The translations under genes and the position numbers were made by a program. Below are positions 601-61,759 of a DNA stretch of 64,000 nt, piece after piece. Position 1 is the first letter of the stretch. Each line of letters starts with the position of its first letter. This stretch comes from Psammoneis japonica (taxonomy: Eukaryota): contig QPGO01000044.1 of the NCBI GenBank assembly GCA_008632985.1, forward strand, positions 124,001 to 188,000. Reading direction: 5' to 3'. The notes beneath the pieces are model-generated. The model had not been told where the DNA came from. It was given only the letters and a program-made list of their open reading frames with translations, and ran no database searches.

Positions 601-2960
601 TTAAAACACGAATCACACCAATTTGCCACAAACAACAGTCGTGATTGAAAACAAACAAATGTCACACCAACCAATGGATGGGCAGCTTGTCAAACAGTGT
701 GGGGAAAGCCACACAATGACAACATTTAAGTGGGTGGTCATTCATTGAGTGAATTCCTCTTGTGTGGCTTATGACTTTATAAGCTGCACAAGGGAAGTTT
801 GTGAGCTGCATGACGCAATGATTCAACAACCTGCTTTGTGCAGCTCACAACTTTATGAGCTGCAAAGGGGAGTTCACAAGCTGCACAAAGCAATGCATTG
901 TGTGCTGCATGATGACAATCGATCAATTGCTCAACTCTTTGTTTGCCACAGCGACATGCACGCAATTTTTTTTTTGGCATGCAGCAAAACGTGGCCACCA
1001 TCAACAACACAAAAATGGAACGTCACCGTTCCAAGTCATTGCAACAGATGGCACCCCCATGCCATGCAGGGTGATCGTCAATGCGGCAAGGTGCATTGTG
1101 ACAGCTTGGTTTGGTTTGTTGTTGCCTTGGCGTTGTTTTTTCACGTCTCATCTTACCTGCTGTCGTGTCGGCATTTCTTGCATGACAACAGGTGCGACCA
1201 ACCAACATTGACAGAAATGGCATCATCATTTTCAGCATCTCACTGGCAGAATCTGGTGGGATGGCAAACAAATTGGTGAGAATGCAACACAGTGCTGTTG
1301 TTCTGTTGCATCAGAGTGTCCTTTTTCCCATTTCACATTCCCTCAGCTTGCTCTTGCTCTTTGTGCTGCTGTTTTTTTTTCTTTTCAGTGCAAAACAACC
1401 ATCTTTTGCGGTGTTGGCAACATGAGCATCAGCAATGTCATGGACATCATGGACATCTCCATGCTTGCGTTCAGCTCCGATGATGCATCCATGGAGGAAG
1501 CCAATTTGGAGTCCGGCGTTGCTCCCTTGGCCTCCAGACAATTGAAGCACCCAAGAAATTGCAAAATAAAAAAAGAGTGAGCAAAGATGATGCCCTTCCT
1601 CAAAACAACACAGGAAAAGACCACATGACGGCTGCAACAGCCAATGCCAGATTTTGCCACCAAACCTTTTCCCACCAACAATGCCAATGCATTGCATGCC
1701 ACATTTTGCTCTGACAAGCACACCCATGAAAAGAGACAGGTGACGATGTTCAAGTCCCAGGTGACGCACAAAAGGACAATCAATTTTGAACACAAATTGT
1801 GCATCTGTCGTGTGTGGAGCAATTGCATGTAAAACACTTAAAGGGAGGAGTTTTTGCAGATGTTTAGAGTGTGAACATTTAATTGGTTTTTTCATTGGCA
1901 TGCAAGTCCTCATGGGACATGTGTCACAAACTCCCTCAGTGGACTCAATGCTGATTTCAAGATTGTGTGCCAGTGCATTGCATGCAGAGATTTGGATGTA
2001 GGAAGAACCCATGCCACAGAGCATTGTAGAAAAATTGTTCATGTTGACTTCAAAACAATGGCAACAATTTTGCCGAAAATCATCCGTTGTGTTGCGATTC
2101 CATTTGTTGCAACAAATGACATGGATTGCACAAAAACAATGACATCGCAACACTCACATGAGTCTTGTCAGTGTTGCAAAACATTTGCATTTGGATGAAT
2201 CCATGCTTTTGGTGGTGACAGCTTGATCGCAAGTTGGGGACCGTGTGAACATCGTGCAAATGTTGTTTTTGTGCACGATTTGGTTCACGTGTGGCTGGAA
2301 CACATCAGGTGAAACAAAGTCCAAAAATGGGTGAAAACTCCTTTTGTGATTTTGTTGTCATCCACAATCTTGAATCTCACAACTTCAACAGCTGATGCTG
2401 CTTTGCCACCAATTTTTTCCCTCCAACAATGCTGACACATGACATGCTTCATTGCACTCAAAAAAGTGCACACATGAGAAAAGAGAGATGAGAGAGAAAA
2501 AGCCCGAAAATGGACAAACACCCCTTCTGAGATTTTTTGCTGATGTTCAGGCTCTTTTCTCAAAACTGTCACATTTCAATTTGTTTGTTCTTGACAGATT
2601 GAAGAGTGTGGAATCTGTCATTCAGACAATGAAGACTTTTCATGCAAATGTCGTTTTTGTGCATGTGCTTTGGTTCGTGCGCAGCTGGAACATGTCAAAA
2701 GGGGAGACAAGGGGCAACTCAAGGGCGCGGAGCATTCATTGTGGCAATCTGCAATCTGCCACTTTTGGAAAAGTCAGGGAACATCTGGCAAATGAGGTCG
2801 TTTTTGTCTCTGAACATTTGGGTGACTGCATGGGTTGCTCGCTGGCTGCAGCGGCACCCACGCAACTTCTTCTTGCAAAGATGTTCATGTGGCTTGGGTT
2901 CCCTCCACCTCTGAACATCAAGACAGCCAACTGAAGCCAAGGGAGGTTGCTCTCTGGCGA

Positions 2961-3122
2961 GGCATTGATTGAAACTTCCAAGGAAGGGAGTGTCTTTCAA
3001 TGCTGTGAGCCCAAAATCTTAGCCACAGCAGGGCTGCAGGTGAGGCATCGATTGAAACTTCCAAGGAAGAGAGTGTCTTTCAATGCTGTGAGCCCAAAAT
3101 CTCAGCCACAACAGGGCTGCAC
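2961..3122. repeat. Tandem duplication, ~83-bp unit x2
   Basis: ggcat(t/c)gattgaaacttccaaggaag(g/a)gagtgtctttcaatgctgtgagcccaaaatct(t/c)agccaca(g/a)cagggctgca occurs at ~2961 and ~3044. Confidence 0.85.
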
Positions 3123-3500: not shown

Positions 3501-4293
3501 TTTAGACTGTCAAAACGCTCTGCCCACACCAGGTGAAAAATTGCCAACAAATGATGCCCGTTGGTTCGAACAAAATGTCGCGCACCTCCAACAAATGTCT
3601 GTGGGTTCGAATCCAGGGACGTGCATCCAATCAGCATGGTGAAATGAATTCAAGAAGTTTGCACCCACACAAAATGTTCAAGTGGCTGTCTAAAGTGCAG
3701 CTTCTACAATGTAAGAATGCTCAAGTTGGACAACAACAAAATTGTGATCATGGGTTTTTATCTGCCAAACCGCCATCAGCTCCAGCTTGCCGACCTTGGC
3801 ACAGCTCACCGTGTGGGGCCTCCCCCTTGTCACCCAAGTCGTGATCCCCCCCGCTTGCTTTCCATGGCTGCCTGAAATCATTCTGTGCAAATCTTCCCAT
3901 CAACCAAGTTGCTCACTCATGATGTTGCATTTGATCTCCATGACCGGCTCCTTGAAGAACTTGGCTCTCAGCAACCATCCCCTCCCTTGCTCTTCCTTGG
4001 TGCCCTGCATCGTCTCCTCCTGTGCCCTCCTTTGCCAGGCGTGAGTTGCTTGGCACAAAGCACTTGAGCCATTTTGCACACTTTCTCTTCTTTGCAACAG
4101 CCTCCTTTTGCATGAGCCCCTTGTTGGCGATGCTCTCAAGCTCGCTCGCAACACCCATCAGAGATGAGAGTCCCTCTCTCGTCTTGTCCCGCCCCTGTGT
4201 CATTGGAAACAGCCATGCTGCTGGTGTGAGTTTTGAATCTTGAGCAACATCAATTCTCCAACAAAACTTGTGGCAAAGCTTGTCTTTGTGCAG

Positions 4294-4569
4294 TGACAGG
4301 ATTTGAACAGGATTTGGGTGCGCGCAAAGCATCGCGCGCTGTTTAGTTTACCGCGCACAGTTTTGTGTGCTTTAGTTCCGCGCGTTCACGCGCGATGTAG
4401 TTTGCTTTCGAGCCACAAGGCTCACAAGGACAATAACAGCAGCCCGATTGTGCCAACTTACACGTCTTTCGGCTCCTGCAACGGTCTCTGAGCGGAGACT
4501 CATCTGCTGTTTAGACAGCAGCAAGGAGTCATTGTTTGAATTCTTGCCATTTGCCTTCAATTTCTGTCA
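4294..4569 (+). repeat. 5' LTR
   Basis: Direct repeat of 11087-11362 with TG...CA ends; 15 mismatches by manual alignment, no indels. Confidence 0.97.
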
Positions 4570-5508
4570 GATTGACAGTCTTGCTCATTGTCAACCCATT
4601 GAGCAACCGCCATCGTCGTCGTTGATTTACCAACGACGCCACCTTCAATCCCACGTGGACCTCCATGTGTGTTCTACATACATCGGCAAGTCTACGCGCA
4701 TTCAATGCCAGGGCATCGGCAGGAAGTTAACGTCACCGTCAAGTCTCCTTGCCGCTGGACATCTGGATTGATTGTGCTGCCTTTGATCGCTGAAGACATG
4801 TGTTCAACGGTCACATCCAAGTCTGTCCTTGATCAACATCCCTTGACACACCTGTTCCTTGGTTAACGGTCAAGAACCCCGCACATTCAAGGATCTTAGT
4901 CGCTGAAGACACACGCATGTGCACATGTCTTCACGGCCAAGAACCTTTACCCACTCTTAGGACCACGGTTTTGCTGCCACTCCACAAGCACACCGAGTCC
5001 ATTGCACCTGATCTGCCCGGACTGCTGGTGCTCTGCAGTTCCACCAGGTCCACGAGGACGACTGTGAGAGCAAGTGGCCGTGATTGCAGCCTGCGTTGGG
5101 GCGAGGGTGCTTTCCCGCGTTTGTTCGTTCGTCCACAGCGCCTGACGCCTGCGTCAACTGGCCAGCCTGATCGGGAAATCCAACCGACATAAAACAAGAA
5201 CGGTTCGGGGGTCTTGTCCACCTCCAGTCAGCTCACCTGCAGGGGTTTACAACCCGCTGCTCCGCTCGCAAGCAACCCAAAGCGCCGCTGGCTGTGGGTT
5301 CGGACGTGCCTGCACAACTCTACGGACCGGATAGGAAGTTTAGCACTTGACAACGAACGGGACAGCAAAGCCCGGCGACTTCTGATTTTAAGACAGTTCA
5401 AGATTTCAAGTCAAGTCTGTTTCAAGTCAAGTCCATTCTCACCCAAGTTTCGAGTCTGCCTTCGCTTCCCAACCAGAATTGATTGTCCTGACACCACTTT
5501 TGTCTGCC

Positions 5509-8500
5509 ATGGTTCTCACTCGTCAGCAACAAACCGATGGTTTCGAGCACGTTGTTGGAACCGTGCGTGCCCAAGGTGCTGGGAGTCCTCTTCGTTTGGC
5601 TTTGGCCCAAGACGGCACGGACTCGCATCAGGAACCATTCACGTTCACACCGTCCCAAATCGACTCGCTTGAGTGCGACAACGGCACTAATGTGATCCCT
5701 TTGCCCCGTGGTTATAAGAACATGTTAGCAGCACTGGTTGGTCTGTACATTGTCAAAGCACACAAAGGTCTTGACGTTGCCAACGACTCCTCTTTGTTCA
5801 CGCATGACGAGTTCCTTGCCTGCCGCCTCAGCCCCGACTGCATGTCTTCTGTGTCCATCGGCAGCTCACCCCTTGCACCTCCGCATGTCACCAACCCAAC
5901 CAAGGCACGCGACCCGGTGCGGGACTTCAAGTGAGGCATCAAGCGTGATCCCACCGCTTTCACGGCTCTCAAATCCGACAAGCAGTGGCACACTTGGCAC
6001 ACCTCACTTGTGGCACAAGCCCGTGCCCAAGACGTCAAGTGCATTCTAGACTCGTCGTACAAACCGACCAGCCCCGAAGACAAACTGCTCTTTGCTGAAC
6101 AGCAAAAGCACATGTTCGCCGTCTTTGAACGCATCCTTCTCACTGACAAGGGCAAGGCTCTCATTCGCGAAAATGTGGGGTCTTCTGACGCACAGACCGT
6201 CCACCGCGCCTTGTCTGAGTGCGCGCTTGCCTCCACCCGCGCATCTGTCGAGTCCTCCACCCTGCTCACGCACCTTGCCACCGCACGTCTTGGTGATGGC
6301 ACTTGGAAAGGTCCGACCCACGGGTTCATCCTTCATTGGCAAGATCAGTTGCGCAAGTGCGAGGCACTCATCCCGGCCAGTGACCACTTCTCTGAAGGAC
6401 AGAAGCGCGTCATGCTCGAGAATGCCGTGCACCCTGTCAAGGAACTCCGTGCTGTCAAGAACCAAGCTGATCAGCATCGCACGCAGAGTGGCAAGAGCCT
6501 CACACACGATCAATGCTGTGGCTTGCTCCTCTCCGCAGCAGCTCAGTACGACAGCACTTTTCAACCCAAGACGACACCTCGAGCTCCCCGATGCGCCACA
6601 CACGCACACGACGTCTGCTCCGAGGAACCGTCCGACGATGTGTTCTACGACATTGACAGCAACATTGACGTCCTTCAGGCCAATGCTGCCTGCACCCGCG
6701 GTCCCAGCCTCACCGGTGACCAATGGAGACGTCTCCCTCCCGACCACCAACGGATCTGGGATTCGTTGCCCGATTCCTCCAAGGCGATCATCCTTGAGCA
6801 TTCTCGTCTGCCTCCCCGCAACCCGCGAGCCAGTGACTGCCATGAGTCTGTTACGGCCAACCTTCACGACCAACGCCTTGGGAGTGACGGTGATGTCAAC
6901 TTGTCCAACACGACTCCTGCTGACTCTGGTGACTCCGCTCCAAATGTGGACGCCACTTCGGATGATCCCATCCTGGCGCACCTCACCAAGCGCAAGCCAC
7001 TGCCACCCGGTGATCTGCAACGTCTGTTGTCTCCTAACCAAGCCCCCAATGCCAGTCGACCGGGGCCATCCGCCGCTTCCTCTACCCCGCCAGCTTCTGC
7101 AGATGACACAGAACTTAACGGCCGCACTCACCGCCGCGTTGACAACCACAATGTCATTTGCTCTGCCTCTGCTCATCGCTCCACACGCACTGGTGCTCTA
7201 GTCGATCGTGGGGCCAACGGCGGCATTGCTGGCGACGACGTTTTCGTCATTGCACGCACCTCTCGCCAAGTCGATGTTCAGGGCATTGACGATCATCAAT
7301 TGGTGGACATTCCTGTTGTCACCGCTGGTGCCGTCATTGAGACCCAGCGTGGTCCCGTCATCGCCATCCTCCATCAGTGTGCATGCACGGGCAAGGGCAA
7401 GACCATCCATTCCTGCGGCCAGCTCGAATGGCACAAACAGGATGTCAACGATCGCTCTGTCAAGGTGCCCAACGGCTTGCAACGCATTGCCACTCCTGAT
7501 GGCTGTGTCATCCCCATTGACATCAAGGCCGGCCTGCCTTGTGTTGCCATGCGACCTTACACTGACGCCGAATGGGGACACATGGGACCCTTCCGTCCTC
7601 GATCACTCTGTCACTGATGACAACCAGTGGTGCAACGCGATCTCTGACCCACAGGACGATCCCACTGCCAACCTGTTTGACGAACACGGCAACTGCCGTC
7701 ATCGTGTCATTGTCAACGAGACCATCATGTCCGCTTCCTTGTCTGCCGATCACGCGTCCGCCCTCGATGATCACCTCATTCCGAACAACGACGTGTTCTG
7801 CGAGTGTCATCCACATGCGATTGACCCCAAGGGCGATGACGTTCCGCCTCCGGAGCGCACTGTGCAGCCCAAGGACCCCCCCTTCGAGTCTCTTCGGCCT
7901 TGCTTTGGCTTCCTACCTGCCGATGCGGTCCGTTGTGCTTTTGACTGCACCACGCCCGCATGCCCGCCGGTGCACACCTTAGGAAGGCCTGCAAATCACC
8001 CAACCCCGCCCTCAATGTGCACCGCCGCAACGAGCCTGTCGCCACTGACACCGTTTGTGCCGACACCCCGGCCGTCAACTCTGGTTGCACCAGCGCCCAA
8101 CTGTTTGTTGGCACCGAGTCTACCGTCACTGACGTCTGCGGCACTAAGACGGACAAAGAGTTTGTCAACACACTCGAGGATCAGATCCGTGAACGTGGTG
8201 CCCCATCCAAACTCATTAGCGACCGTGCTCAAGTTGAGATCAGCAACAAAGTGCTCGGGATCCTGCGCGCCCTCTTCATCTCCAGCTGGCAAAGTGAGCC
8301 TCACCAGCAACACCAAAACTTTACCGAGCGTCGACACCAGCCCGTGAAGCGCATGGCAAACACTGTCATGGATCGTTTTGGTTCGCCCGCCCACACATGG
8401 CTGCTGGCGCTCATGCACGTGTGCTTCACACTCAACCATGCAGCGTCCCCACGTCTCCACTGGCGCACGCCCCTCGAGACTCTCACTGGCTCCACCCCGG

Positions 8501-11139
8501 ACATCAGCCCATTGCTTCGCTTTCACTGGTGGGAACCCGTGCACTTCCACCTCGATGACTCCGATTGGCCGCCCGAATCCCGTGAGTTGTGTGGACGCTT
8601 CGTTGGCATTGCTGAGCACGTCGGCCACCAGATGACCTTCAAGATTCTATCTGACGAGACTCAGAAGATCCTCCACCGGTCCAACGTCCGCTCCGCTGCC
8701 ACCGATCCTGCTGTTCGAAACCTGCGTCTTGATCCTCCTGATGGGGAGCCACCTGAACCCATCATCAAATCTTGCCATGACGACAACCCCGTCGATTCTC
8801 CTGATGGGGAGATCAGGACACCCAAGATGCCAGTTTTCGATCCGCAAGACATCATTGGACGTACCTTCCTCATGCAGCCACAAGAGGACGGACAACGCCA
8901 CAGAGCTCGCATCGTCAAGGCCGTTGAAGACCACGAATGGAAAGTGAACGGCAATCCCGAGCTCACTAAGTTCGTCTGCTCTGTCAACAATGACGAATAC
9001 GAGGAAGTCCTTGCCTGCAATGACATTATGAATCACATTGAGCAAGAAGACAAAGACACTGCCATTTGGAAATTTCGACGCATCGTGTCACACGAAGGAC
9101 CTCTGAAGCCTCACGACCCAACCTGGAAAGGCTCAAGCTGCAACATCATGCTTGAATGGGAAAGTGGGGAGATCACGTCCGAGCCTCTTGCCATCATTGC
9201 CAAGGACGACCCCGTCACCTGTGCCATCTACGCACGAGAGAACGGACTCCTCGACACGGATGGCTGGAAGCGGTTCCGCACCATCGCGAGGCGCCAAAAG
9301 AAGCTGTTTCGCATGGCCAACCAAGCCAAGCTTCGCTCCTTCCGCACTGCACCTTGCTGCAAGTACGGATGCGAAGTTCCCCGGAACTGCAAACACGCCA
9401 TGTCACTAGACGAACGCAACGGCAACCGCAAGTGGGGAGATGCAACTAATCTCGAGATGGACCAACTCGACGAATACGAAGTCTTCCATGACTGCGGGCC
9501 CTTCAAGTCTTCCACTCCTCCTGCGGGACACAAGAAGATCCGAGTGCACCTGGTGCACGACGTGAAACACGACGGTCGCCACAAGGCACGACTCGTAGCC
9601 GACGGGCACCTCACGGACGTGCCTGTCGACAGTGTCTACTCCGGAGCAGTCTCCCTCCGTGGCCTTCGGCTGATGATTTTCCTGGCCGAACTCAACGAGT
9701 TGGAGACATGGGCCACCGACATTGGCAATGCCCACCTTGAAGCCACCACCAAGGAGAAGCTTTACATTGTAGCCGGACCCAAATTTGGCAAACTCGAAGG
9801 ACACATCCTTGTAATCCACAAGGCACTGTATGGACTGCGCAGCTCCGGTCTCCGCTGGCACGAGCGCTTCGCCGACTGCCTGCGAGCTGAAGGCTTCTTC
9901 CCCTGCCGCGCCGAACCCGACATTTGGATGCGCAGGAACGGCGACCACTGTGAATGCATTGCCGTTTATGTGGATGACCTCGCCATTTCCATGAAGGACC
10001 CTCAATCTTTCGTCGACACTCTCACGGAAAAGTGCAAGTTCAAGCTCAAGGGTGCGGGACCCATTGAGTTCCATCTGGGTTGCAACTTTTCCCGGGATCC
10101 CGACGGAACCTTGTGCCTGTCTCCGCGCAAGTACATCGAGCGCATGGTCGACAGCTGCGCCCGACTGTCTGGGGAGAAACCCACCACCAATGCCCTGTCA
10201 CCTCTGGAGAAGGGTGACCACCCCGAACTGGACACTTCCGAACTGCTGGGACCCGATGGCATTCACAAGTTCCAGTCTCTTGTTGGTTCACTCCAATGGG
10301 CAGTGTCCCTTGGTCGAATTGACATTGCCACGGCCGTCATGTCACTCTCTAGCTTCCGAGCTGCGCCCCGTCAAGGCCACTTGGATCGTGCCAAACGCGT
10401 CTGTGGGCACCTCTCCAAGATGCAACACGGTGCTCTCCGCGTTCGCACGGAAGAGCCCGACCATTCGGATCTCCCTGCTCTGGCCCATGAGTGGATGCAT
10501 TCCGTGTGTGGCAAAGCAGAAGAGATGATCCCGAAGGACGCTCCACCGCCCCTTGGCAAGTTTGTCACTGCCACCCACTGCGTCAATGCAAACTTGCACC
10601 ATTGCATGCTCACCGGACGCTCTGTCATGGGAATGCTCCGCTTCCTCAACAAATTCCCGGCTGATTGGTTCTCTAAGAAGCAAGCCACCATGGAGACTGC
10701 GACCTGCGGGTCTGAATTTGTTGCCGCAAGGACTTGTGTTGAGCAGATTGTCGACCTGCGCATCACCCTGCGCTGCCTTGGCGTCCCGATCCGTGATGTT
10801 GGTCACATGTTCGGTGACAACAAGTCGGTTGTAGACAGTGCCACCATCCCGCACTCCAAGTTACACAAGCGACACACTGCACTGTCGTTCCACCGTGTGC
10901 GTGAGGCAATTGCCTCTGGTTGCCTTGAGCTCCACTTCATCGAAGGCTCCCGCAACCCTGCTGACATTCTCAGCAAGCATTGGGGTTGCTCCCAAATCTG
11001 GGACCTTCTCTGCCCCCTCATGTTCTGGAACTTCATTCCATCCGAAGTCGAATCTGTTTCTGTGACTCCTCAAGCAAACTGGGGAGTGACAGGATTTGAA
11101 CAGGATTTGGGTGCGCGCGAAGTGTCGCGCGCTGTTTAG
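5509..11139 (+). pseudogene. gag-pol polyprotein pseudogene (gag, protease, integrase, RT, RNase H)
   Basis: Gag FK*GIKRDP (TGA at 5932-5934, likely from CGA). Protease LVDRGANGG. Integrase VATDT...LISDRAQ...SEPHQQHQN..ER. RT HKARLVA, KALYGL, YVDD. RNase H SEFVAA, GDNKS, NPADILSK. Frame breaks near 7578 and 7950. Confidence 0.93.
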
Positions 11140-11362
11140 TTTGCCGCGCACAGTTTTGTGTGCTTTAGTTCCGCGCGTTCACGCGCGATGTAGTTTGCTT
11201 TCGAGCCACAAGGCTCACAAGGATGATGACAGTAGCCCGATTATGCCGACTTGCACGTCTTTCGGCTCCTGTGACGGTCTCTGAGCGGAGACTCATCTGC
11301 TGTTTAGACAGCAGTGAGGAGTCATTGTTTGAATTCTTGCCATTTGCCTTCAATTTCTGTCA
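11087..11362 (+). repeat. 3' LTR
   Basis: Copy of the 5' LTR, preceded by the PPT and followed by the TSD. Confidence 0.97.
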
Positions 11363-30170: not shown

Positions 30171-30840
30171 TGCATCTCCCATCAACCTGCCAGCATCATG
30201 TTGATGACAACTTTCATGCTGACATGCACCCCCCCCCTCCTGAACTGGACTGTTGCAGCAAGCACTTTGGTGGTGCATGTCTTGTTGGGCTTCCCACACA
30301 ACAAGAGTGCTGTGTTCCTCAGCAAACAGAAGCTGGGTGCTCTTCATCCACACACTGGATGGGCACTGGGCAGGTGTTTCAACTTGAGGACTGTGCCAGT
30401 TGGTGTGCTGCCATGGAAATGGGATCAGTTCCTTGAGCATTTCCATGGGTGGCTTCACAAACAAGGCCACTCACTTATGGGTGCAGCAAACCTGAGCAGC
30501 CAGCTCAAATTCCACACACGGTGTGCTGTCTTTGGGCTCATCCAAATTTTTCTGTGCTTCAGAACTTCATGCGTTGAGTGTTGGTCACCCAATTTGCCAT
30601 TGTGAAGTGCATCTTGGAGCAACAAAACATGAAGTTGAATTTGGAAACTCAAATGCTGAGCCATCTCAAGCACAGGCCACCAGGCTTGCTGGCACGCACC
30701 CAAGCCCAGCTGCTTTGCATGTTGAAAATCAAGATGCCAATGACCTCCCATGCATTGGATGTCATCAAGGATGCAGCATCCTGTCTTGAATCAATGTTGC
30801 AGCCATGGATGGCTCCAACTGGATGTCATCCCCAGTGTGT
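30170..30840 (+). pseudogene. Decayed LINE fragment (post-RT region)
   Basis: Fragmentary ILEQQNMKL and ALDVI segments and Trp spacing resemble diatom LINE ORF2; heavily degraded. Confidence 0.35.
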
Positions 30841-30849
30841 CACATTGCC

Positions 30850-31176
30850 AAGCCACGGGAAGGAAATTCCACAACATGACCTTCCCACTTCTTCCTCACA
30901 TGGCTCATTTTCACATTGACAAGCAGCCCACATTTGGGCTTCCTTGGAATCATTTTTGCTGCTTCAATGGCCTTTTCCCATTCACAGTCAGCAATGGTGG
31001 AACTGTGCCCACTTCTTCCTCATCTGGTTCATTTTCACAATGACAAGCAGCCCACATTTGGACTTCCTTGGAATCATTTTTTGCCACTTCAATGGCCTTT
31101 TCCCATTCACAGTCAGCAATGGTGGAATGGAGCACCGCAATGTTTCTGTTTTAATCAACAGCCAAATCCTCGGACT
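30850..31176 (-). pseudogene. Mutated, internally duplicated fragment homologous to the ankyrin-like gene at 54264
   Basis: Translates IADCEWEKAIEVAKNDSKEVQMWAACHCEN versus ITDCEWEKAIEAVKNDPKEAQTWVVRHYEN in the intact gene (54322-54520). A ~120-bp unit is present twice. Confidence 0.92.
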
Positions 31177-31360
31177 TAACAGGCTAGAGTAAAACCATCT
31201 CAATGATTTGGACTGCTCACTCTAAAATTTTAACTGATGTCGACATAATCATCATTCGCATTATAATGTCTTCTAGCACGTGACAAAGTGTTGTCAACTC
31301 ACGTGCTATTCTTTCTTCAAACAACAACTTTCCTTGCCTTTCAACAACTTGGCGTTGTAC

Positions 31361-54263: not shown

Positions 54264-55697
54264 ATGCCGCCCCTCAATACAGGAGACGTCGAGACTATGG
54301 GAGCGGTCGAGGAGCCGTTTCAGTCCGAGATGGAAGTCGATTACGACAGAAACATTACGGCGCTCTATGCCGCCATTACCGACTGTGAGTGGGAAAAGGC
54401 CATTGAAGCGGTAAAGAACGATCCCAAGGAAGCCCAAACGTGGGTTGTTCGTCATTACGAAAACGATCAAGATGGGGAAGAACCGGGTGAAGTCATGTGG
54501 AGGTTCCTTCCCATTCACTCGGCGTGTGCCAGGCAACCACCCGCGTCTGTCATTTCCGCCCTTATCAAGGCCTACCCCGACGGTCCAAAGTGTCCGGATG
54601 ATCAAGGAATGTACCCGCTTCATTATGCCTGTGGTAATCAAGCTAGCCGAGAGGTGATTCGTCTCTTGCTGGTGGCCTTTCCGCAGGCTGCCAAGTTGGC
54701 GGATCCCCGCGGGATGCTTCCGATTCATTACCTTGCCTGCTGGGGACCCTCGTCCGTGTCTATTATTGACATGATTCTTGTCGCCAATCGAGATGTCAGT
54801 GATGCCAAGGACGCGGACGGTAACTCTGCCTTGGATTTGGCCATGGAAGGAGAATACGAGGACAAAGACGCGGTCATTTCGACCTTGCGTCGTTGGCTCG
54901 ACAAGAATTCGGCTCGCACCGGACCGCCCTCCTTTTCTCCACGATCCCCGCTTCGTGTTGACAAGACGCTCACCATTAGTACTACGCCGGTTGCTGCGGA
55001 GAAATCCACTCTTGTGGAAAAGGAACCGACCGACACGACATCAAACACCATTAGTCGTCTTAGGCTCGATATGACCAAACTCAAAACGGAACTCCGTGAG
55101 GCAGATGACAACAAGAAGCAAGCGGTTGAAGAAGCTGTGGCTCCGTATCGCACTCAAGTACAAGACCTTCAAGCAGAATTGGAAACGTCAAAGCAACAAG
55201 TCGAGTTCCAAGCTATGCAAATGGAGAAGCTCCGGGAAGAGATTGCCGCGCTCTCCACTTACATGGATCAAGCCGTGGAACTGGAACGCAAGGAAGATCT
55301 CTTGCACTCTACCGAAGTGAAACTCGAGGAGGCCACGCAGACCATCGTTTCCGTCAAGAAGGAACGTGACGAACTCGCGTCAGAACTCGGCATGGTGGAG
55401 GCTGAGCGTAATCTGTTCAAGAAAAAGGGTGAGAACATCAATGATCGATTGTTATCACTCAGTGCGTCCTTAGCCAGTCTCTCGGACAACCAGTTCCTGG
55501 TCAATGCCAAAATCAAGGACCGTGAAGCTCGTCTGGTGAGTGCCGCCGAGGTGCGTCGTGCCAAGCTGCAGGCGCTTCAAGAGTTTGAGGAGCAGCTCAT
55601 GGCTGGAAGTGCTGCAATCGACCATGATGGTGACTTTGAGCAGCAAAAGCGAGAGTTTGATGCAATTTCTGCAGTTATTGCAGCAATGAAGTTTTGA
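54264..55697 (+). CDS. Ankyrin-like repeat protein with C-terminal coiled coil
   Basis: LPIHSAC, GMYPLHYAC, GMLPIHYLA, DGNSALDLA, then a heptad-rich C-terminal half. Confidence 0.88.
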   Translation: MPPLNTGDVETMGAVEEPFQSEMEVDYDRNITALYAAITDCEWEKAIEAVKNDPKEAQTWVVRHYENDQDGEEPGEVMWRFLPIHSACARQPPASVISALIKAYPDGPKCPDDQGMYPLHYACGNQASREVIRLLLVAFPQAAKLADPRGMLPIHYLACWGPSSVSIIDMILVANRDVSDAKDADGNSALDLAMEGEYEDKDAVISTLRRWLDKNSARTGPPSFSPRSPLRVDKTLTISTTPVAAEKSTLVEKEPTDTTSNTISRLRLDMTKLKTELREADDNKKQAVEEAVAPYRTQVQDLQAELETSKQQVEFQAMQMEKLREEIAALSTYMDQAVELERKEDLLHSTEVKLEEATQTIVSVKKERDELASELGMVEAERNLFKKKGENINDRLLSLSASLASLSDNQFLVNAKIKDREARLVSAAEVRRAKLQALQEFEEQLMAGSAAIDHDGDFEQQKREFDAISAVIAAMKF

Positions 55698-55889
55698 GTG
55701 GAAGGACGGAAAGGTGGAGGAATACCGTATGTAAAGTATGGTAGTTAAGAATCGTCTGTAGTTTAGTTATGCATGTCATCTCATAAGAGACCGTATGTTG
55801 TTTTGATTGGCGTCGGCAAAATTCATTGTTTCTGATTCTCCTCAATTTCCTGTCAGTCGATGAAGCTATACCATGCCGAGATCAAGCAC

Positions 55890-56152
55890 CTGCCGAGGTG
55901 CGTCATGCCAAGCTGCTGGCGCTTCAAGAGTTTGAGGAGCAGCTCATGATTGGAAGTGCTGGTATCAACCAAGATGGTGACATTGAGCAGCACAAACGGG
56001 ATTTTGATGCAATTTACTGCAGTGATTGCGGCAATGAAGTTTTAAAAATGGACGGATGGAAAGGTGACGGAATAACGTGATGAAAAGGTTTGGTAGATAA
56101 GAATCGTCTCTAGTTTAGCTCATCACTCACTACGTCTGTTGTTTTGATTGGT
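55890..56152 (+). repeat. Tandem duplicate of the ankyrin gene 3' end and 3' UTR
   Basis: gccgaggtgcgtc(g/a)tgccaagctgc...aagaatcgtct(g/c)tagtttag...tgttgtttt(t)gattgg matches 55545-55810. Confidence 0.88.
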
Positions 56153-56191
56153 ATCGCATATTCTCAAACTCCGTAAAACAGCTCTCCTGCT

Positions 56192-57060
56192 TCAGATTCC
56201 TTGTTTCTGTCTCTTTTCGTATAATTTCTTTGCCTCCTCAATGTCCTGTTCATCTATAAAGCTAAACCATGTGTCGAGTGGCTCCATGAGTTGATTGAAC
56301 AATTGATCAACATCGGCGCGGTCTGGTTCTGAGCACGTCAACTGATACTCTACTTCAGCTCTCAAGTCTTGCACAAGCGTCAAGATGCTGTTTCGTTGTA
56401 AATCCCTCAAGTCTAAATCAGCCGTAATGACAGACTTGATGTCGGGCAAACGATTAGAGCGGATCATGTCCTTCTGGCCTTACCGGTGACATTGAGCGTG
56501 TAGGCTTCTCCAAATCTCAAATTTGCTGTGTAAGTGTTGAAGGCTTTTCTTATCGAAGGAGAGGACAACTCGTCAAGCTTTAAAATGCTCGACATGTCCT
56601 CCAAGGGTAAATCACGGAGCGAGACCAACAGAGTCCGAACACGAATAGATGGTAGCAAGGCTTGGACTGGTGCAAACGGACGAGGCGGCGATTTTTGTTG
56701 TGACGTGGAACTCTCACCAGTGTCAGATATTCTATATTCGTTGGTCTCGCTAAGGTCTGATTCTGCCTTTATCACACCACGCTTCCCGGTGTATGTATCA
56801 TCTGCAAACTGCGACCAGTAGCTTCCCTGAATCGCGGCTGCTGTTCGTTCCAACGCTGAACGACGAGTCGTCTCTACAGTGAGGTCGACGCCATCCTGTG
56901 GCGATAACATGAGCATTGTTGCGCTGTTGCTCTTGAGTCCCATCATTTCCCCTCTTGGTAGGTGCCTACAGTTCTTAAGCACAAACGCTACCGACTCATA
57001 TCGAAGGAGCAACAGCCCAAACAACGGAAACAAACCAACATATTTCATTGCACACCGCAT
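56192..57060 (-). CDS. Putative plastid-targeted protein of unknown function, split by an apparent 1-bp frameshift at ~56470
   Basis: Signal peptide ending SVA-F, then an RRSAL twin-Arg-like motif. Two ORFs overlap at ATGA (56467-56464) and read as one protein (...NVTGKAR/MIRSNRLPDIK...). Confidence 0.65.
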
Positions 57061-57519
57061 GTAGCCCTAGTGACGTTGTTGCAGAGTGTATCCTTTAGAG
57101 TCGGTTGAATATTCGTCTCGAGGATGAAGCAGGTTCGTCGCTTCCTTAGTCCCTGGCGGACGAGAGTTTCTTTTCAAAGCTCAGTTGGGTGCAAGAGGAG
57201 AGAACCGTGGCAGAGGGGGTGGATCTGGACTGGAAACCCAGACGGCAGCAGTTGCATGTGTTGTGTGTTATGAGCTGCTCTCTACTCTCTGGATAAGGCT
57301 CTCTAGCTAGAGCGTTGAGTACATTACTGTCTGAGTGCTGAGGGCCTCACAACGTTGGAGGTCGACCTACAGTACCCGCACTGTGGCATGGCGGCATGGC
57401 ACACCACCGGCACACGTCATACGGTATGGTACGACATGATGAATGATGATGTGATCTATGATTTTGGTCGCGGATCATGACTGCCAATGGGCGGCGGGAG
57501 ACAGGTTGGAGGATGTACG

Positions 57520-59233
57520 GCAGTGTGTTGTTGTCTCATGCACAAGGGGGCAAAGTGGTGTCTCTTGACCAACTTCGAAACATGAAAACCAGGAATCTGT
57601 GCAGGAGGGAAAGGCTGAAAAGAGCAAGTGCCAGGGGGCAAAGAGAGAGCAGCCTCTCTTCTTGGTGTGCCGTGCGCAGGATTGGCCTCGGGCCTGGCTC
57701 TGGTGCCACACAAAAAAAAACTCGTGTGCTCCATTGCCCACTGTTGCCACAAGAAAGACACGCCTTGGCATGCCTTGAGTGCATCAGCAGGAACAAAGTG
57801 TGTCATGAGAAGCCCTTGACTTGTGTGTGGGTGAAAGGGCACTGATGGGGGCCAGTGAGTGTGCACCAGGCCTGTTCCAGCCCCAGCACCAGGTGACATG
57901 AGCAATCCATCATCGCGCGAAAGGCCGATTTTCTGTGCAGCCCAGCACATTGAACTCCTTCAAATTAGATTGTTTCGAAAATCAAAAGATGAGTGCACAA
58001 AAAACCAACAAAAGCTTTGTTCACACTCACCCTTCAATTTGAAAAAAAAAGATTTTGAAGGAGTTCATTGTGCCAAATGCAAAAATGGGCCAGTGATGGT
58101 GGCTGGGAGTTGAGCCTGTGAGCATCACCTGGAGCTGGAACAGGCTGCCAGCACCTTTGCATAAAGATTTTTCTGGTTTGCATGCTGTGTCTGCTCCCAG
58201 ACTTTCTTGCTGCTTTGCGGGCACTGCTCACTCTTTTTTTCCAACAGTGCTCAAATGCCCCCAACCAAAAATTTGGTCTTGTGATGGCAGCTTCACCAGC
58301 ACTTTGTGGATCAACAGGATTTTTCTCTCCTTGCTCAGCAGAGCCACACCCAGCTAAAGTGAAATCTCTGCTCCTCATGGTGCAAAGAGGTTGGAACTTC
58401 CTTGGTGTGCAGCATGCTCATTTGCAAAGAGAGCCGCGCTGCTCTTTTTTTCAGTTGCCCCCCCCCCCCCCCCCAAAGAAAGCTGCTTTTCTCGTTCTTC
58501 TTTGGCAACAGCCCACAAACAAGAATGTTCCTGCACAAAAAGAGCTTGATTTTGCAACAGAGCCATTTTGCCAATGCTTTTGTGGAGCACTGAGATTTTT
58601 CCCTCCTTGTCTGGCACCTGACCAAAGCAAATCTGCCCCTGTGCACAATGTGCTGGTGTGCAAGAGCTGCAAGTCAACAGGTGCAAGAGACAGAGCAGCA
58701 AAGAAAAACAACGGCAAAAGCAGCAAAAAATGCTGCAGACCAGTGACAACCAAAAGGAGCTTCTTGTCACTTCAGCATGTGACACATTCTTGAAGACTTG
58801 AGCCAGCGGCTGTGTGGGCTGCGGCTGTGTGGGCTGCACGCAGACAAGCACGTGCTGCCAAGTTCTCAGTCACAGCGAGCTCGCTCCTCCTGCCTCCATG
58901 CAAAGAGCCAATGGTGATGGCTCACATTGCACAAGTGAACCATGGAGGTGGTTTTCTGGGTTTCCAAAATCATTGTGTGGCTGAAATGAGCAGGTCTTTC
59001 ACTCCTGCTTTTCGCACACCCTTGCAGACCTGCTCCCATGTTTTGGGAGCGACAGCGAGCGACGGCGGCGCGCGCACACGCGCACCACTCTCAACTCCAT
59101 CCCCCAGCAGGCCAGCCACACGGGCAAGCACCAGCAACACACAGCGAAGAGCACCGAAACGTGCACCGAAACAAAACATGAGGTGCAAATCGCCGATGTC
59201 GGATGTCGGCAGTCGAACAGACCACAGACCGCT
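57520..59233. other. Isolated TpA-depleted island, probably a decayed TE insertion
   Basis: Only three TA dinucleotides counted by eye in ~1.7 kb (~57966, 58162, 58355). No credible ORF; flanks are TA-rich. Confidence 0.7.
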
Positions 59234-59332
59234 CTATCTAAAGCACCGGTAGATAGACTTGAGACTACCGGCAGCAGCTACTAGCGAGGTTAAAGGTCGC
59301 GGCGCTGTCGAAACAGACATATCAGCAGCACC

Positions 59333-60073
59333 ATGTCATCGTCAGTGTCGAAAAAGCGCAAGGCAAGCGCCTCATGCAACGAAGAAGCCATGGTAAATCC
59401 TGCCAAGGTTTCGCGTAGCGACAACAGCAACAACTCAAAGACAACCACTGCTACTGCCACCAACATCACAAACGGTGGCAGCGCAAAAAGCAATAACAAT
59501 CACGACTATGAACCGCTCTCATTGAATGACATTCGCAATCGCATTATTCAATTATCGTCTCGCGTTCCGGTTGTTCCTCCCGAGGGATTGGACGATTCCG
59601 ATCAAGCCCAAGTCAAGGATTGGGCCGCCCAGCTGCAAGCCGTGGTTGAAGAATTCAACTTGTTGCTTTGCTGCATAAGTGCAGCGACCTACAAATGGGG
59701 CTCCGAACGCAGCGGTGCGGCCGACCAAAACTTGAGCGTTCTGAGTGGTGAATTAGCCAATGCGCAAGAACAAATCTCGTCCACCGTGACACCCCGTTTG
59801 ACCAACGTCTTGGCACCCGTCGTCGACTTGGTTGTCGACAAGATCGTCACGACGACAAAGGAGGACGGCACGCAAGTCAAACAAAATTACTTTTCACGAC
59901 AACAGGTGGATCCTGCCTTTTTGAAGCTTTGTCAGACAATTTTGTGTCGAAATTCCAAACTGCTGAGACAGGTGGTTCTGGCAAACTTTCACAAGATTGA
60001 AGTGTGCATTGGTGACTACATCGAGGCGCAGCTCAAGGACAGCCAACACGACAGCCGTGGGTTTGCTTATTAA
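59333..60073 (+). CDS. Hypothetical protein (basic NLS-like N-terminus, helical domain)
   Basis: Clean 246-aa ATG..TAA ORF with normal composition and a KKRK motif. Confidence 0.8.
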   Translation: MSSSVSKKRKASASCNEEAMVNPAKVSRSDNSNNSKTTTATATNITNGGSAKSNNNHDYEPLSLNDIRNRIIQLSSRVPVVPPEGLDDSDQAQVKDWAAQLQAVVEEFNLLLCCISAATYKWGSERSGAADQNLSVLSGELANAQEQISSTVTPRLTNVLAPVVDLVVDKIVTTTKEDGTQVKQNYFSRQQVDPAFLKLCQTILCRNSKLLRQVVLANFHKIEVCIGDYIEAQLKDSQHDSRGFAY

Positions 60074-60646
60074 CTTTTAATACAAGATTTTTGTAAAAAT
60101 ATGTAAAGGAATTACAGTAATGCAAGTACGGTAGGTCCTCTTATTAGGGCCTACATGCCACCTATCTCAATCACACTGGTACGATTTTATTGCAGTATGA
60201 TACTCCTTTGTTACTCTAAAGTATGAATGATAAAACCGCGATTACGGGGAAAAGGTACAAGAAATTATTTCGATATGGGATCGTCGGTGGTGGCACTGTC
60301 TCTATCTACAGTCTTCATCATCTCTCACTTTCAGACCACGAAATAGATCCTTTTCCTACCCGACTTACATGACACCACCAACAAAAGAGGCCATAACCTG
60401 ACACCATAGCTCAATTACTTTATAGGACAAAAGTAAGGTATGATACCTCTAGATTTCGTTTCTCACAGCAATTTTGGTGTAAGTGAAAATCTCTTTTTCA
60501 TAGTTCACAGTATAATAGCAAATATCTCAACGAAATAACAAACGAGTCGCCCCTACAGCTCCATATTCTATAGATAATGCTAATCGGATCTCAAGAGATA
60601 TTCTGTGCAGGTGGAACGTCAAGTTCCCTTGGTTGTCACTAATGTT

Positions 60647-61759
60647 TCAATATATGAAATGGTCGCTTCCTGGCCCGACGGGTTTACACGTCAAGGTTGC
60701 AATGCAAGCTCTCAGTTTCAAGCTCCAAACCTTTACTGTTCGGTTTTGAGCCAACGAGATAACCGTGTTGGGGTCCATCATGTCGAGAGCATAAATCCAA
60801 TGGCTATGACCCGTCCAAGTGTCAATGCACTCTCCCGAGTTTGCGTTCCAAAGCTTTATCGTTTTATCCGAAGACGCAGAGAGAATCACGTTGCTTTTTC
60901 TCGGAACAATAATGGAATTGACATCGTCCAAATGCCCTACAAATGTTTGAAGGTTTTCTCCCGTGTCCACGTTCCACAGCTTGACCGTGTTGTCCCACGA
61001 GCCCGAAAGAAGCAGCGTACAATTGTCCTTGATACCTGCAAGACACGTGACAAAATGGCCGTGTCCCGTCAATGTACGGATACATTCTTTATCAGATCTG
61101 CTCCAAATCTTGATTGTCTTGTCATGCGAACTCGACGCAAATCGATTGGAGTCAATCGATGCAACGCTCACGACATAGCGAGAATGACCCGTGCACGTTT
61201 GGATGCACTTGCCCGTGTTTACATTCCACAGCTTGATGGTCTTATCGTACGATCCGGAAATAAGGATATCGGCAGTAGGCATGACTGCGAGCGACGTTAC
61301 GATATGAGAATGACCCGCGAACGTTCTCATGCATTCACCCGTGTCTATGTCCCATTGCTTGATTGTTTTGTCAAACGACCCCGTCACAAACGAAGAATCG
61401 TCTACTCGTTCCATACAAACAATTCCAGGATTGTGACCCGAGTGACCGTGAATGGCTCGAACGCGTTTTCCTGTAGATCGTCGCCAAATCAGGAGGCTTC
61501 CATTATCATGTCCGGAAACAAACAGTTCGCCGCCCATTGACAAAATCGAAAGTGGCTTGGATGAAAATTCTGTCGTGTGCTGCTGGGGCCGGTCTTGTTT
61601 TGTTGGATCTAGGTTCGAATCATCATATCTGTAGTCAACATTTTGATGGCGTGGAGGCTTGTGAAGATTCTTGCTGCTGGAGGACATGGCATCTTTTGGA
61701 GCTTGAGCGTCAAGAAGAAACGAGACAGAGCGAGACCCACCTTTTCGTGGGTTATTCAT
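60647..61759 (-). CDS. WD40-repeat protein (~7 repeats)
   Basis: Repeated GH...SGS.DKTIKLW(N/D) units. Confidence 0.92.
   Translation of the reverse strand: MNNPRKGGSRSVSFLLDAQAPKDAMSSSSKNLHKPPRHQNVDYRYDDSNLDPTKQDRPQQHTTEFSSKPLSILSMGGELFVSGHDNGSLLIWRRSTGKRVRAIHGHSGHNPGIVCMERVDDSSFVTGSFDKTIKQWDIDTGECMRTFAGHSHIVTSLAVMPTADILISGSYDKTIKLWNVNTGKCIQTCTGHSRYVVSVASIDSNRFASSSHDKTIKIWSRSDKECIRTLTGHGHFVTCLAGIKDNCTLLLSGSWDNTVKLWNVDTGENLQTFVGHLDDVNSIIVPRKSNVILSASSDKTIKLWNANSGECIDTWTGHSHWIYALDMMDPNTVISLAQNRTVKVWSLKLRACIATLTCKPVGPGSDHFIY

Follow-up and report, generated by a model that had tools for sequence, protein, structure and literature searches.

The window, a stretch of 64,000 nucleotides, comes from the genome of a diatom, as judged from the named homologues of both genes that flank the segment considered here (Table 1). 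The gene to the right has 241 homologues, the named ones from diatoms, and belongs to no Pfam family. The gene to the left is split over two frames with a shift near 56470, and each of its 3 homologues, one of them labelled Attheya sp., matches both frames; the contigs of two runs show one gap each over this gene, and the frame shift is likely an assembly indel. Contigs of the second run (56101-56901, 56880-57317 and 59229-60082) lie over both genes, one beginning 6 bp from the right edge of the segment; since this run is not on record as RNA, the contig ends are not taken for transcript ends.

The original prediction saw by eye only three TA steps in ~1.7 kb between these genes, and an exact count agrees: 57520-59233 holds 3 TA in 1,714 bp (o/e 0.03), against 73.6 expected at the rate of 4.3 per 100 bp in the TA-normal DNA of the contig (P ~7e-28). 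The three survivors, at 57966 (TTAG), 58162 (ATAA) and 58355 (CTAA), all stand in non-RTAY contexts. The same interval has 44 CG (o/e 0.39), with CA at o/e 1.55 and TG at o/e 1.75. Its flanks are TA-rich, as had also been stated, with 11 TA in 57300-57517 and 9 TA in 59235-59335, and the right edge does fall ~100 bp from the next start codon, the ATG at 59333. A two-state model places the TpA-erased domain at 57517-59235. The same signature recurs in the window at about 1-3.5, 11.5-31 and 36-44.8 kb, and of 264 kb of contig sequence 62% is TpA-erased, spread over 16 domains that measure 1.4-36 kb.

Table 1. Features of the locus and of the larger elements related to its transposon (window positions unless a contig is named)
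Feature	Position	Strand	Remarks
Host gene	56192-57060	-	points away from the domain; start ~460 bp from left edge
TpA-erased domain	57517-59234	.	3 TA left, CG partly lost, CA/TG gained
Left arm, 351 bp	57518-57868	.	0 TA, CG o/e 0.28, no second copy found
Left 4-bp target site duplication (TSD), ACCA	57865-57868	+	would read as GCCA before CpG decay
Non-autonomous DNA transposon (MITE), 278 bp	57869-58146	.	terminal inverted repeats (TIRs) starting GGCCTGTTCCAGC
Right 4-bp TSD, GCCA	58147-58150	+	
Right arm, 1,088 bp	58147-59234	.	2 TA, no second copy found
Local direct duplicate, first copy	58209-58384	+	old
Local direct duplicate, second copy	58482-58645	+	
TA-free, CG-normal rim	59013-59234	.	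22 CG (o/e 1.06), 0 TA
Conserved diatom gene, 246 aa	59333-60073	+	starts 98 bp past right edge
Autonomous partner L083	G000:C1:594230-603036		
Autonomous partner L084	G000:C15:641592-650251		

The 278-bp element and the mutation process

In the genome search that had been suggested for copy number and ends, the matches beyond self (at least 66, from the best 40 of 282 candidates) fall on one internal segment only, and the recognisable repeat makes up only 278 of the 1,718 bp of the domain. Contig depth over this segment is 2,000-3,000 against ~55 outside, for contigs placed at 80% likeness, and its exact end motif has 308 matches genome-wide. Exact TSD pairs were found for 10 of 23 copies in a first set and for 36 of 52 in a larger one, where 45 of 52 agree within one mismatch. 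The element is a MITE by its shortness, its TIRs and TSD, its many copies and the existence of autonomous partners with the same ends. Terminal repeats and a target duplication, neither of which had been recognised earlier, are thus both present inside the island; at its outer ends that earlier statement stands, for neither was found there (scores of 28 and 37, where random comparisons average 30 with a 95th percentile of 41), also when TA, CG, CA and TG are merged.

The partners are two elements of 8.7-8.8 kb with exact 4-bp duplications and a transposase-like frame, which has 57 unnamed homologues and conserved acidic motifs and matches no Pfam family; both also carry an additional opposite-strand frame of >1,100 codons with no Pfam match. 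The acidic motifs of the long transposase presumably resemble those of Sola2, and the use of this label expresses that resemblance together with the 4-bp duplication. Sola2 transposons are described as having 4-bp, AT-rich TSDs (PMC3627910); the MITE and its partners share the 4-bp length, short TIRs and a long transposase with acidic motifs, but their TSDs (ACCA, AGCA, TCAA, TGAT and others) are not AT-rich, a difference that is possibly biased by TA loss.

Rates were obtained from an alignment of 15 full-length copies of the MITE's family (L103-L117) over 4.2 kb. At 81 inferred TA sites, 36 of them without any surviving TA and deduced from CA plus TG without CG, TA is kept in 221 of 1,164 cells (19%), the remainder reading CA (512), TG (425) or other (6). 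CG is kept in 1,400 of ~2,420 cells (58%) at 171 sites, and other sites differ by 0.7-4.8% (1-5% rounded); TA is lost ~3-3.7x faster than CG and some hundredfold above background sites. Across 45 copies of the MITE, TA is retained in 32 of 398 cells and CG in 346 of 668; all 9 family TA sites have been lost from the copy at this locus, which still has 5 of 15 CG sites. The direction of change is fixed by an outgroup: Tyr is missing altogether from the 587 aa of the transposase frame but makes up 3.8% in its 57 homologues, and 11 of 13 conserved Tyr columns are replaced by His or Cys. Both strands are affected, TA becoming TG or CA, and transversions are few. T-A-pyrimidine is preferred (RTAY retains 7%, YTAR 43%; 17 copies), and neighbouring changes in the same 17 copies show no processivity, 157 pairs lying on the same strand and 185 on opposite strands. 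Outside TA, A-to-G changes number 4-9 per 1,000 when a purine follows and 12-26 when a pyrimidine does, irrespective of the 5' base; this ~3x excess may be either background or a weak side activity sharing the 3' preference. An AA side motif, an early lead, fell away when the changes were polarised and no AA excess was seen.

A second MITE family of 396 bp (1,376 candidates, 4-bp TSD, related end motif; L111:3489-3884, L176-L205) is very young, probably still or recently active, and forms a natural time-zero substrate; its fresh copies keep 848 of 900 TA cells. Across copies of this family the survival of TA and of CG is correlated (rho 0.87), and copies with 10-35% of TA left mostly have 70-96% of CG left. 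This series, from fresh copies to copies low in TA, indicates that TA is lost separately from CG and with a lag after insertion. Elsewhere in the window (4292-11362) lies a Copia-type LTR retrotransposon with an RVT_2 match and LTRs that are 94.6% identical; its internal part has TA o/e ~0.2 and CG o/e 0.87, and its two LTRs differ at 5 TA steps and 2 CG steps and by 4 CA/TG swaps.

On the basis of these polarised changes, which already refute it for the MITE itself, the reading that TA-poverty is native to the DNA or an arithmetic side effect of CpG decay is extremely improbable for the domain as a whole. The right rim is T-poor, as native poverty would have it, but the TA o/e of the domain lies far lower than its CG o/e, and its longest TA-free gap reaches 879 bp against 205 bp across 16 normal segments. 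Methyl-CpG decay alone would give a CG-limited loss with a mild secondary TA deficit, a pattern that differs from the one found.

Arms and edges of the domain

For the arms, whole-genome searches gave self matches only, by a method that ignores common words and from which copies under about 75% identity could escape; there is no contig pile-up over them, the depth being that of single-copy DNA at 80% likeness. Compared with 1.0 Mb of genome DNA, including the same contig, they had no match, whereas 59 of 80 random desert windows did. Pfam and Rfam searches of the right arm found nothing, and neither a coding remnant (15 frames) nor an RNA remnant was seen in the arms. The right arm holds a local duplicate of ~170 bp (score 96.5 against a maximum of 59 in 200 shuffles), the copies of which have 43 differences in 151 columns, among them 9 CA/TG swaps, 1 TA/CA and 1 CG/CA. 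The 9 swaps and the TA/CA difference indicate that the alteration postdates the duplication, although a single CA/TG swap cannot discriminate TA from CG ancestry.

It is probable, judging from base composition and from copies elsewhere, that the arms are ordinary host DNA in which TA was turned into TG and CA in place by the same process. The sum of TA, CG, CA and TG per 100 bp is 24.4 in deserts and 23.9 in normal DNA, and 20.9-28.4 in the arms. DNA upstream of orthologues has a TA o/e of 0.62-0.92 in 11 of 11 loci with >900 bp upstream, from 34 loci fetched, some of them from the same organism and none alignable. An inverted, internally duplicated fragment of an ankyrin-repeat gene at a desert edge (30820-31220) can be compared with the gene itself (54280-54560): 6 of 7 TA now read TG or CA in the fragment, where CG has been lost too. 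The 3' end of the ankyrin gene is also duplicated in tandem (55545-55810 and 55892-56151, 83% identical), and comparison of these copies over 255 columns reveals neither TA/CA nor TA/TG differences. Among the contigs listed (40 of 74) from three runs of one sample over 56000-61000, no junction of an empty-site allele spans the MITE, and 2 differences lie outside it; the sample is possibly the assembly's own. A first metagenome scan for synteny gave nothing, and in a second none of the 34 loci had the neighbouring genes or alignable DNA.

Taken as one old insertion, the other copies of which were lost or have decayed too far, with the MITE nested inside, the 1.7 kb would account for its abrupt edges on both sides, and random desert windows are repeat-derived in 74% of cases (59/80). 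Such an insertion is nevertheless quite improbable, given outer ends without terminal repeats or target duplication, arms without coding remnant and the failure to find a second copy of either arm. The original prediction of a process acting on a small isolated insertion thus survives in the small isolated domain and the real mutation process, but not in the 1.7 kb as an insertion, and its view that a single-copy island would speak against the idea has to be given up, since conversion in place is what the arms suggest. An insertion should therefore not be read into unique DNA of this genome just because it is TA-free.

The right ~200 bp were said to keep CpGs but no TA, which is so for the 222-bp rim listed in Table 1. 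TA-free windows of this length number 0 of 4,372 overlapping ones in TA-normal DNA; taken alone the rim is weak evidence, being T-poor to the extent that its own base content predicts just 3.7 TA. The suggestion drawn from it, that the TA footprint is wider than that of CG decay, is borne out on a larger scale: of 42 element flanks, 31 have their TA edge farther out than their CG edge and 3 the reverse, with a median offset of 130 bp, and at 31 aligned domain edges of the contig CG recovers ~150-200 bp inside the edge. The edges of the island are both abrupt, as described, but the sharpness is limited by the TA spacing (~23 bp) and is partly built in where the first TA defines the edge; saturation, moreover, would turn even a graded rate into an apparent step. 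A duplicate lying 240-415 bp outside another desert edge has 3 of 6 TA changed.

The position of the edges is not fixed but varies with the distance to the next gene, which fits either a promoter barrier or selection against spread, two explanations that sequence cannot separate. No shared motif was seen by eye among the 31 domain edges. At this locus an 8-bp inverted repeat, TCTATCTA ... TAGATAGA with a 9-bp spacer, lies at the right edge (59233-59257), and a 12-bp palindrome, CTCTAGCTAGAG, lies at 57301-57312, ~200 bp left of the left edge; both were found by eye and are possible promoter elements.

Proposed seeding of the domain

The balance is tipped slightly towards the MITE having seeded the silent domain. 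In the old family, normal DNA begins within 1.5 kb of 42 among 124 element ends, at a median of 506 bp; for 32 of the 124 the edge lies 100-800 bp away, where random desert points would give 14.6. The corresponding number for ends of fresh second-family copies is 7 of 62 (P 0.023), and within 100 bp an edge is found for 1 of 124 old-family ends against 4 of 62 fresh ones (P 0.043), in a comparison that spans two families, carries no multiple-test correction and rests on samples drawn by similarity or exact end motif. Searched in the 1.0 Mb of genome DNA, 27 of the 42 margins are without another repeat, a count that includes the two arms of this copy and some overlapping loci; one margin examined is single-copy genome-wide. 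The 264 kb of contig sequence contain 5 other deserts of <4 kb, each with a repeat core plus margins, and ORF-free stretches of 1.0-6.3 kb remain TA-normal.

The same mutator may instead have acted on a silent, TA-erased domain of 1.44 kb that came first and in which the MITE landed, its original seed being an older unrecognisable element or the local duplicate (58209-58645). This order of events is unlikely, if less so than the other alternatives weighed here. In its favour, 29 of 31 fresh second-family copies lie in flanks already TA-free, from which it follows that most TA-free flanks of old copies came with the insertion site and do not prove spreading. Small deserts (~2.2 kb) hold 2 of the 31, equal to the number in normal DNA. 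The local duplicate, furthermore, lies at the centre of the domain where CG loss is deepest, i.e. at 58147-58700, to the right of the MITE and not on it. Nor is there a sign of shared timing: in target-site pairs, discordant or CG-bearing steps are 3 of 144, as expected of pre-depleted targets, and CG survival in the element does not correlate with flank CG (rho -0.02, 24 sides). Against a pre-existing domain, no other repeat was found in the arms, whereas the two small deserts into which a fresh copy had inserted (L182 and L193) each contain another repeat, as do 5 of 5 other small deserts, and the untouched tandem duplicate 55545-56151 indicates that local duplication alone is no trigger.

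The argument that all MITE copies have TA-free flanks was dropped as evidence of spreading, the fresh copies lying already in deserts. No relation was seen between halo length and the age of the element (rho 0.14, P 0.37). Copies of intermediate age from the second family (23 in number) proved unusable on the question of seeding, many of their apparent edges being those of neighbouring TA-rich young repeats. One of the fresh copies in normal DNA (L178) has a TA/TG difference within its target duplication, which counts in favour of seeding.

Proposed mechanism and known systems

In the mechanism proposed for a domain seeded by the MITE, the element would be silenced with CG methylation, and a slightly wider silent-chromatin state would recruit a TpA-specific mutator that acts after a lag and not at insertion. 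Replication would then fix A-to-G on either strand, so that TpA becomes TpG or CpA, and the silent domain would spread into unique DNA until promoter chromatin or selection stops it. To our knowledge no natural enzyme with such dinucleotide-precise A-to-G activity in genomic DNA is established.

A dedicated enzyme would not be needed if methyl-CpG mismatches were repaired by an error-prone polymerase, e.g. polymerase eta, in long patches reaching beyond the methylated core. TA and CG loss do occur together, their survival is correlated across second-family copies, and the median displacement of the TA edge beyond the CG edge is what such patches could leave; even so, this origin is distinctly unlikely. 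TA loss is ~3-3.7x CG loss, and copies with 85-96% of CG retain just 10-35% of TA. Polymerase eta would leave its A-to-G changes at WA, AA being hit clearly more often than CA or GA. Here the non-TA changes show no AA excess (AAC 21, CAC 22 and GAC 20 per 1,000, where the CAY counts may contain decayed CG sites), and transversions are few. Slightly more credit, although it is still unlikely, is due to a modified thymine in place of adenine, e.g. 5-hydroxymethyluracil or a further product pairing with G, as A-to-G in T-A-Y cannot be separated by sequence from T-to-C in R-T-A. Thymine modification of repeats occurs in dinoflagellates. Against it stands the reported preference of TadA-type enzymes for TA and TAC (PMC8065034).

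That same preference, together with the purity of the transitions, favours adenine deamination, and the chances that the mutator is a DNA adenine deaminase recruited by silent chromatin are put at about even. The engineered TadA editor ABE7.10 is reported to act on TA no more than about three to four times as readily as on GA (PMC8065034); the preference here for TA over other contexts is some fifty- to hundredfold.

The closest system known to us is that of Bigelowiella natans, for which the available text of a preprint (Mettrop et al., bioRxiv 10.64898/2026.01.13.699255) describes a TpA hypermutation that strikes integrated DNA of NCLDVs and virophages. Two viral regions, 25 and 186 kb long, are affected (the 186-kb region has a TpA rho of 0.45), at a rate raised ~1,000-fold in mutation-accumulation lines and active in some lines only; an ADAT-type (ADAT2/3-like) deaminase is proposed there without proof. 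Shared with it are the change of TpA to TpG or CpA on both strands, its regional character, the fact that single-copy DNA can be hit and the link to foreign or silent DNA: A:T to G:C transitions at the present locus are confined to TpA on both strands, and are regional on foreign or mobile DNA with host genes spared. It differs, as far as that text goes, from what is seen in the diatom, where DNA transposons and MITEs are affected, 62% of 264 kb is involved, TA is near saturation (o/e 0.02-0.09) in domains down to 1.4 kb, CpG decays jointly, T-A-Y is preferred and unique host flanks are hit. The B. natans rate was measured directly, whereas the present one, ~100-fold in relative terms, is derived from comparison of copies. 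A search of mainly open literature for TpA hypermutation or A-to-G DNA editing in diatoms and stramenopiles returned only that preprint, and a term search of the available text of a 2025 diatom transposon preprint (10.1101/2025.10.24.684338) gave no matching term. What is classed here as new relative to B. natans is another supergroup lineage, transposons as targets, saturation, kilobase domains and unique flanks.

Like RIP, which leaks into single-copy DNA over at least 930 bp in the part of the Neurospora record consulted (PMC2973834), the process cripples repeats by dinucleotide-specific transitions, makes sharp compositional compartments and reaches up to ~1 kb of unique DNA. However, the chemistry is opposite, RIP making TpA from CpA whereas here TpA is lost and CA and TG are gained; as to the duplication trigger of RIP, a 266-bp tandem duplicate nearby is untouched, although it is short and 83% identical. 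Diatom transposons are described as carrying DNMT5-dependent CG methylation, by DNMT5a in Phaeodactylum (PMC9998398), which would explain the loss of CG to TG and CA but not the faster and wider loss of TA. The broadest proposal, which falls somewhat short of an even chance, is that a transposon of <300 bp may suffice to seed a chromatin domain where a DNA adenine editor, specific for TpA and distinct from CpG methylation, acts and then stops at the next promoter, with 0.3-1.1 kb of unique host DNA rewritten per side. If true, this would be a chromatin-guided genome defence opposite to RIP that reshapes host regulatory DNA too.

A diatom with over half a contig saturated is a place to find the enzyme, and small isolated domains are the cleanest test objects, offering here a putative 278-bp seed, unique arms to which short reads can be mapped and two promoter borders, so that targeting, spread distance and stopping of the process become directly testable. 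The locus itself adds a hidden MITE, the rates for its family and a warning that deserts already in place are where fresh elements insert. Matches to the deaminase family PF00383 number 9 in the genome, one of them TadA-like (L135, on G000:C38) and below the curated cut-off; such matches are to be expected in any eukaryote and single out no enzyme for the TA process. A dCMP-deaminase-like gene region occurs twice with identical scores (L133/L136 on G000:C41 and L134/L139 on G000:C317), possibly as two haplotypes or a duplication.
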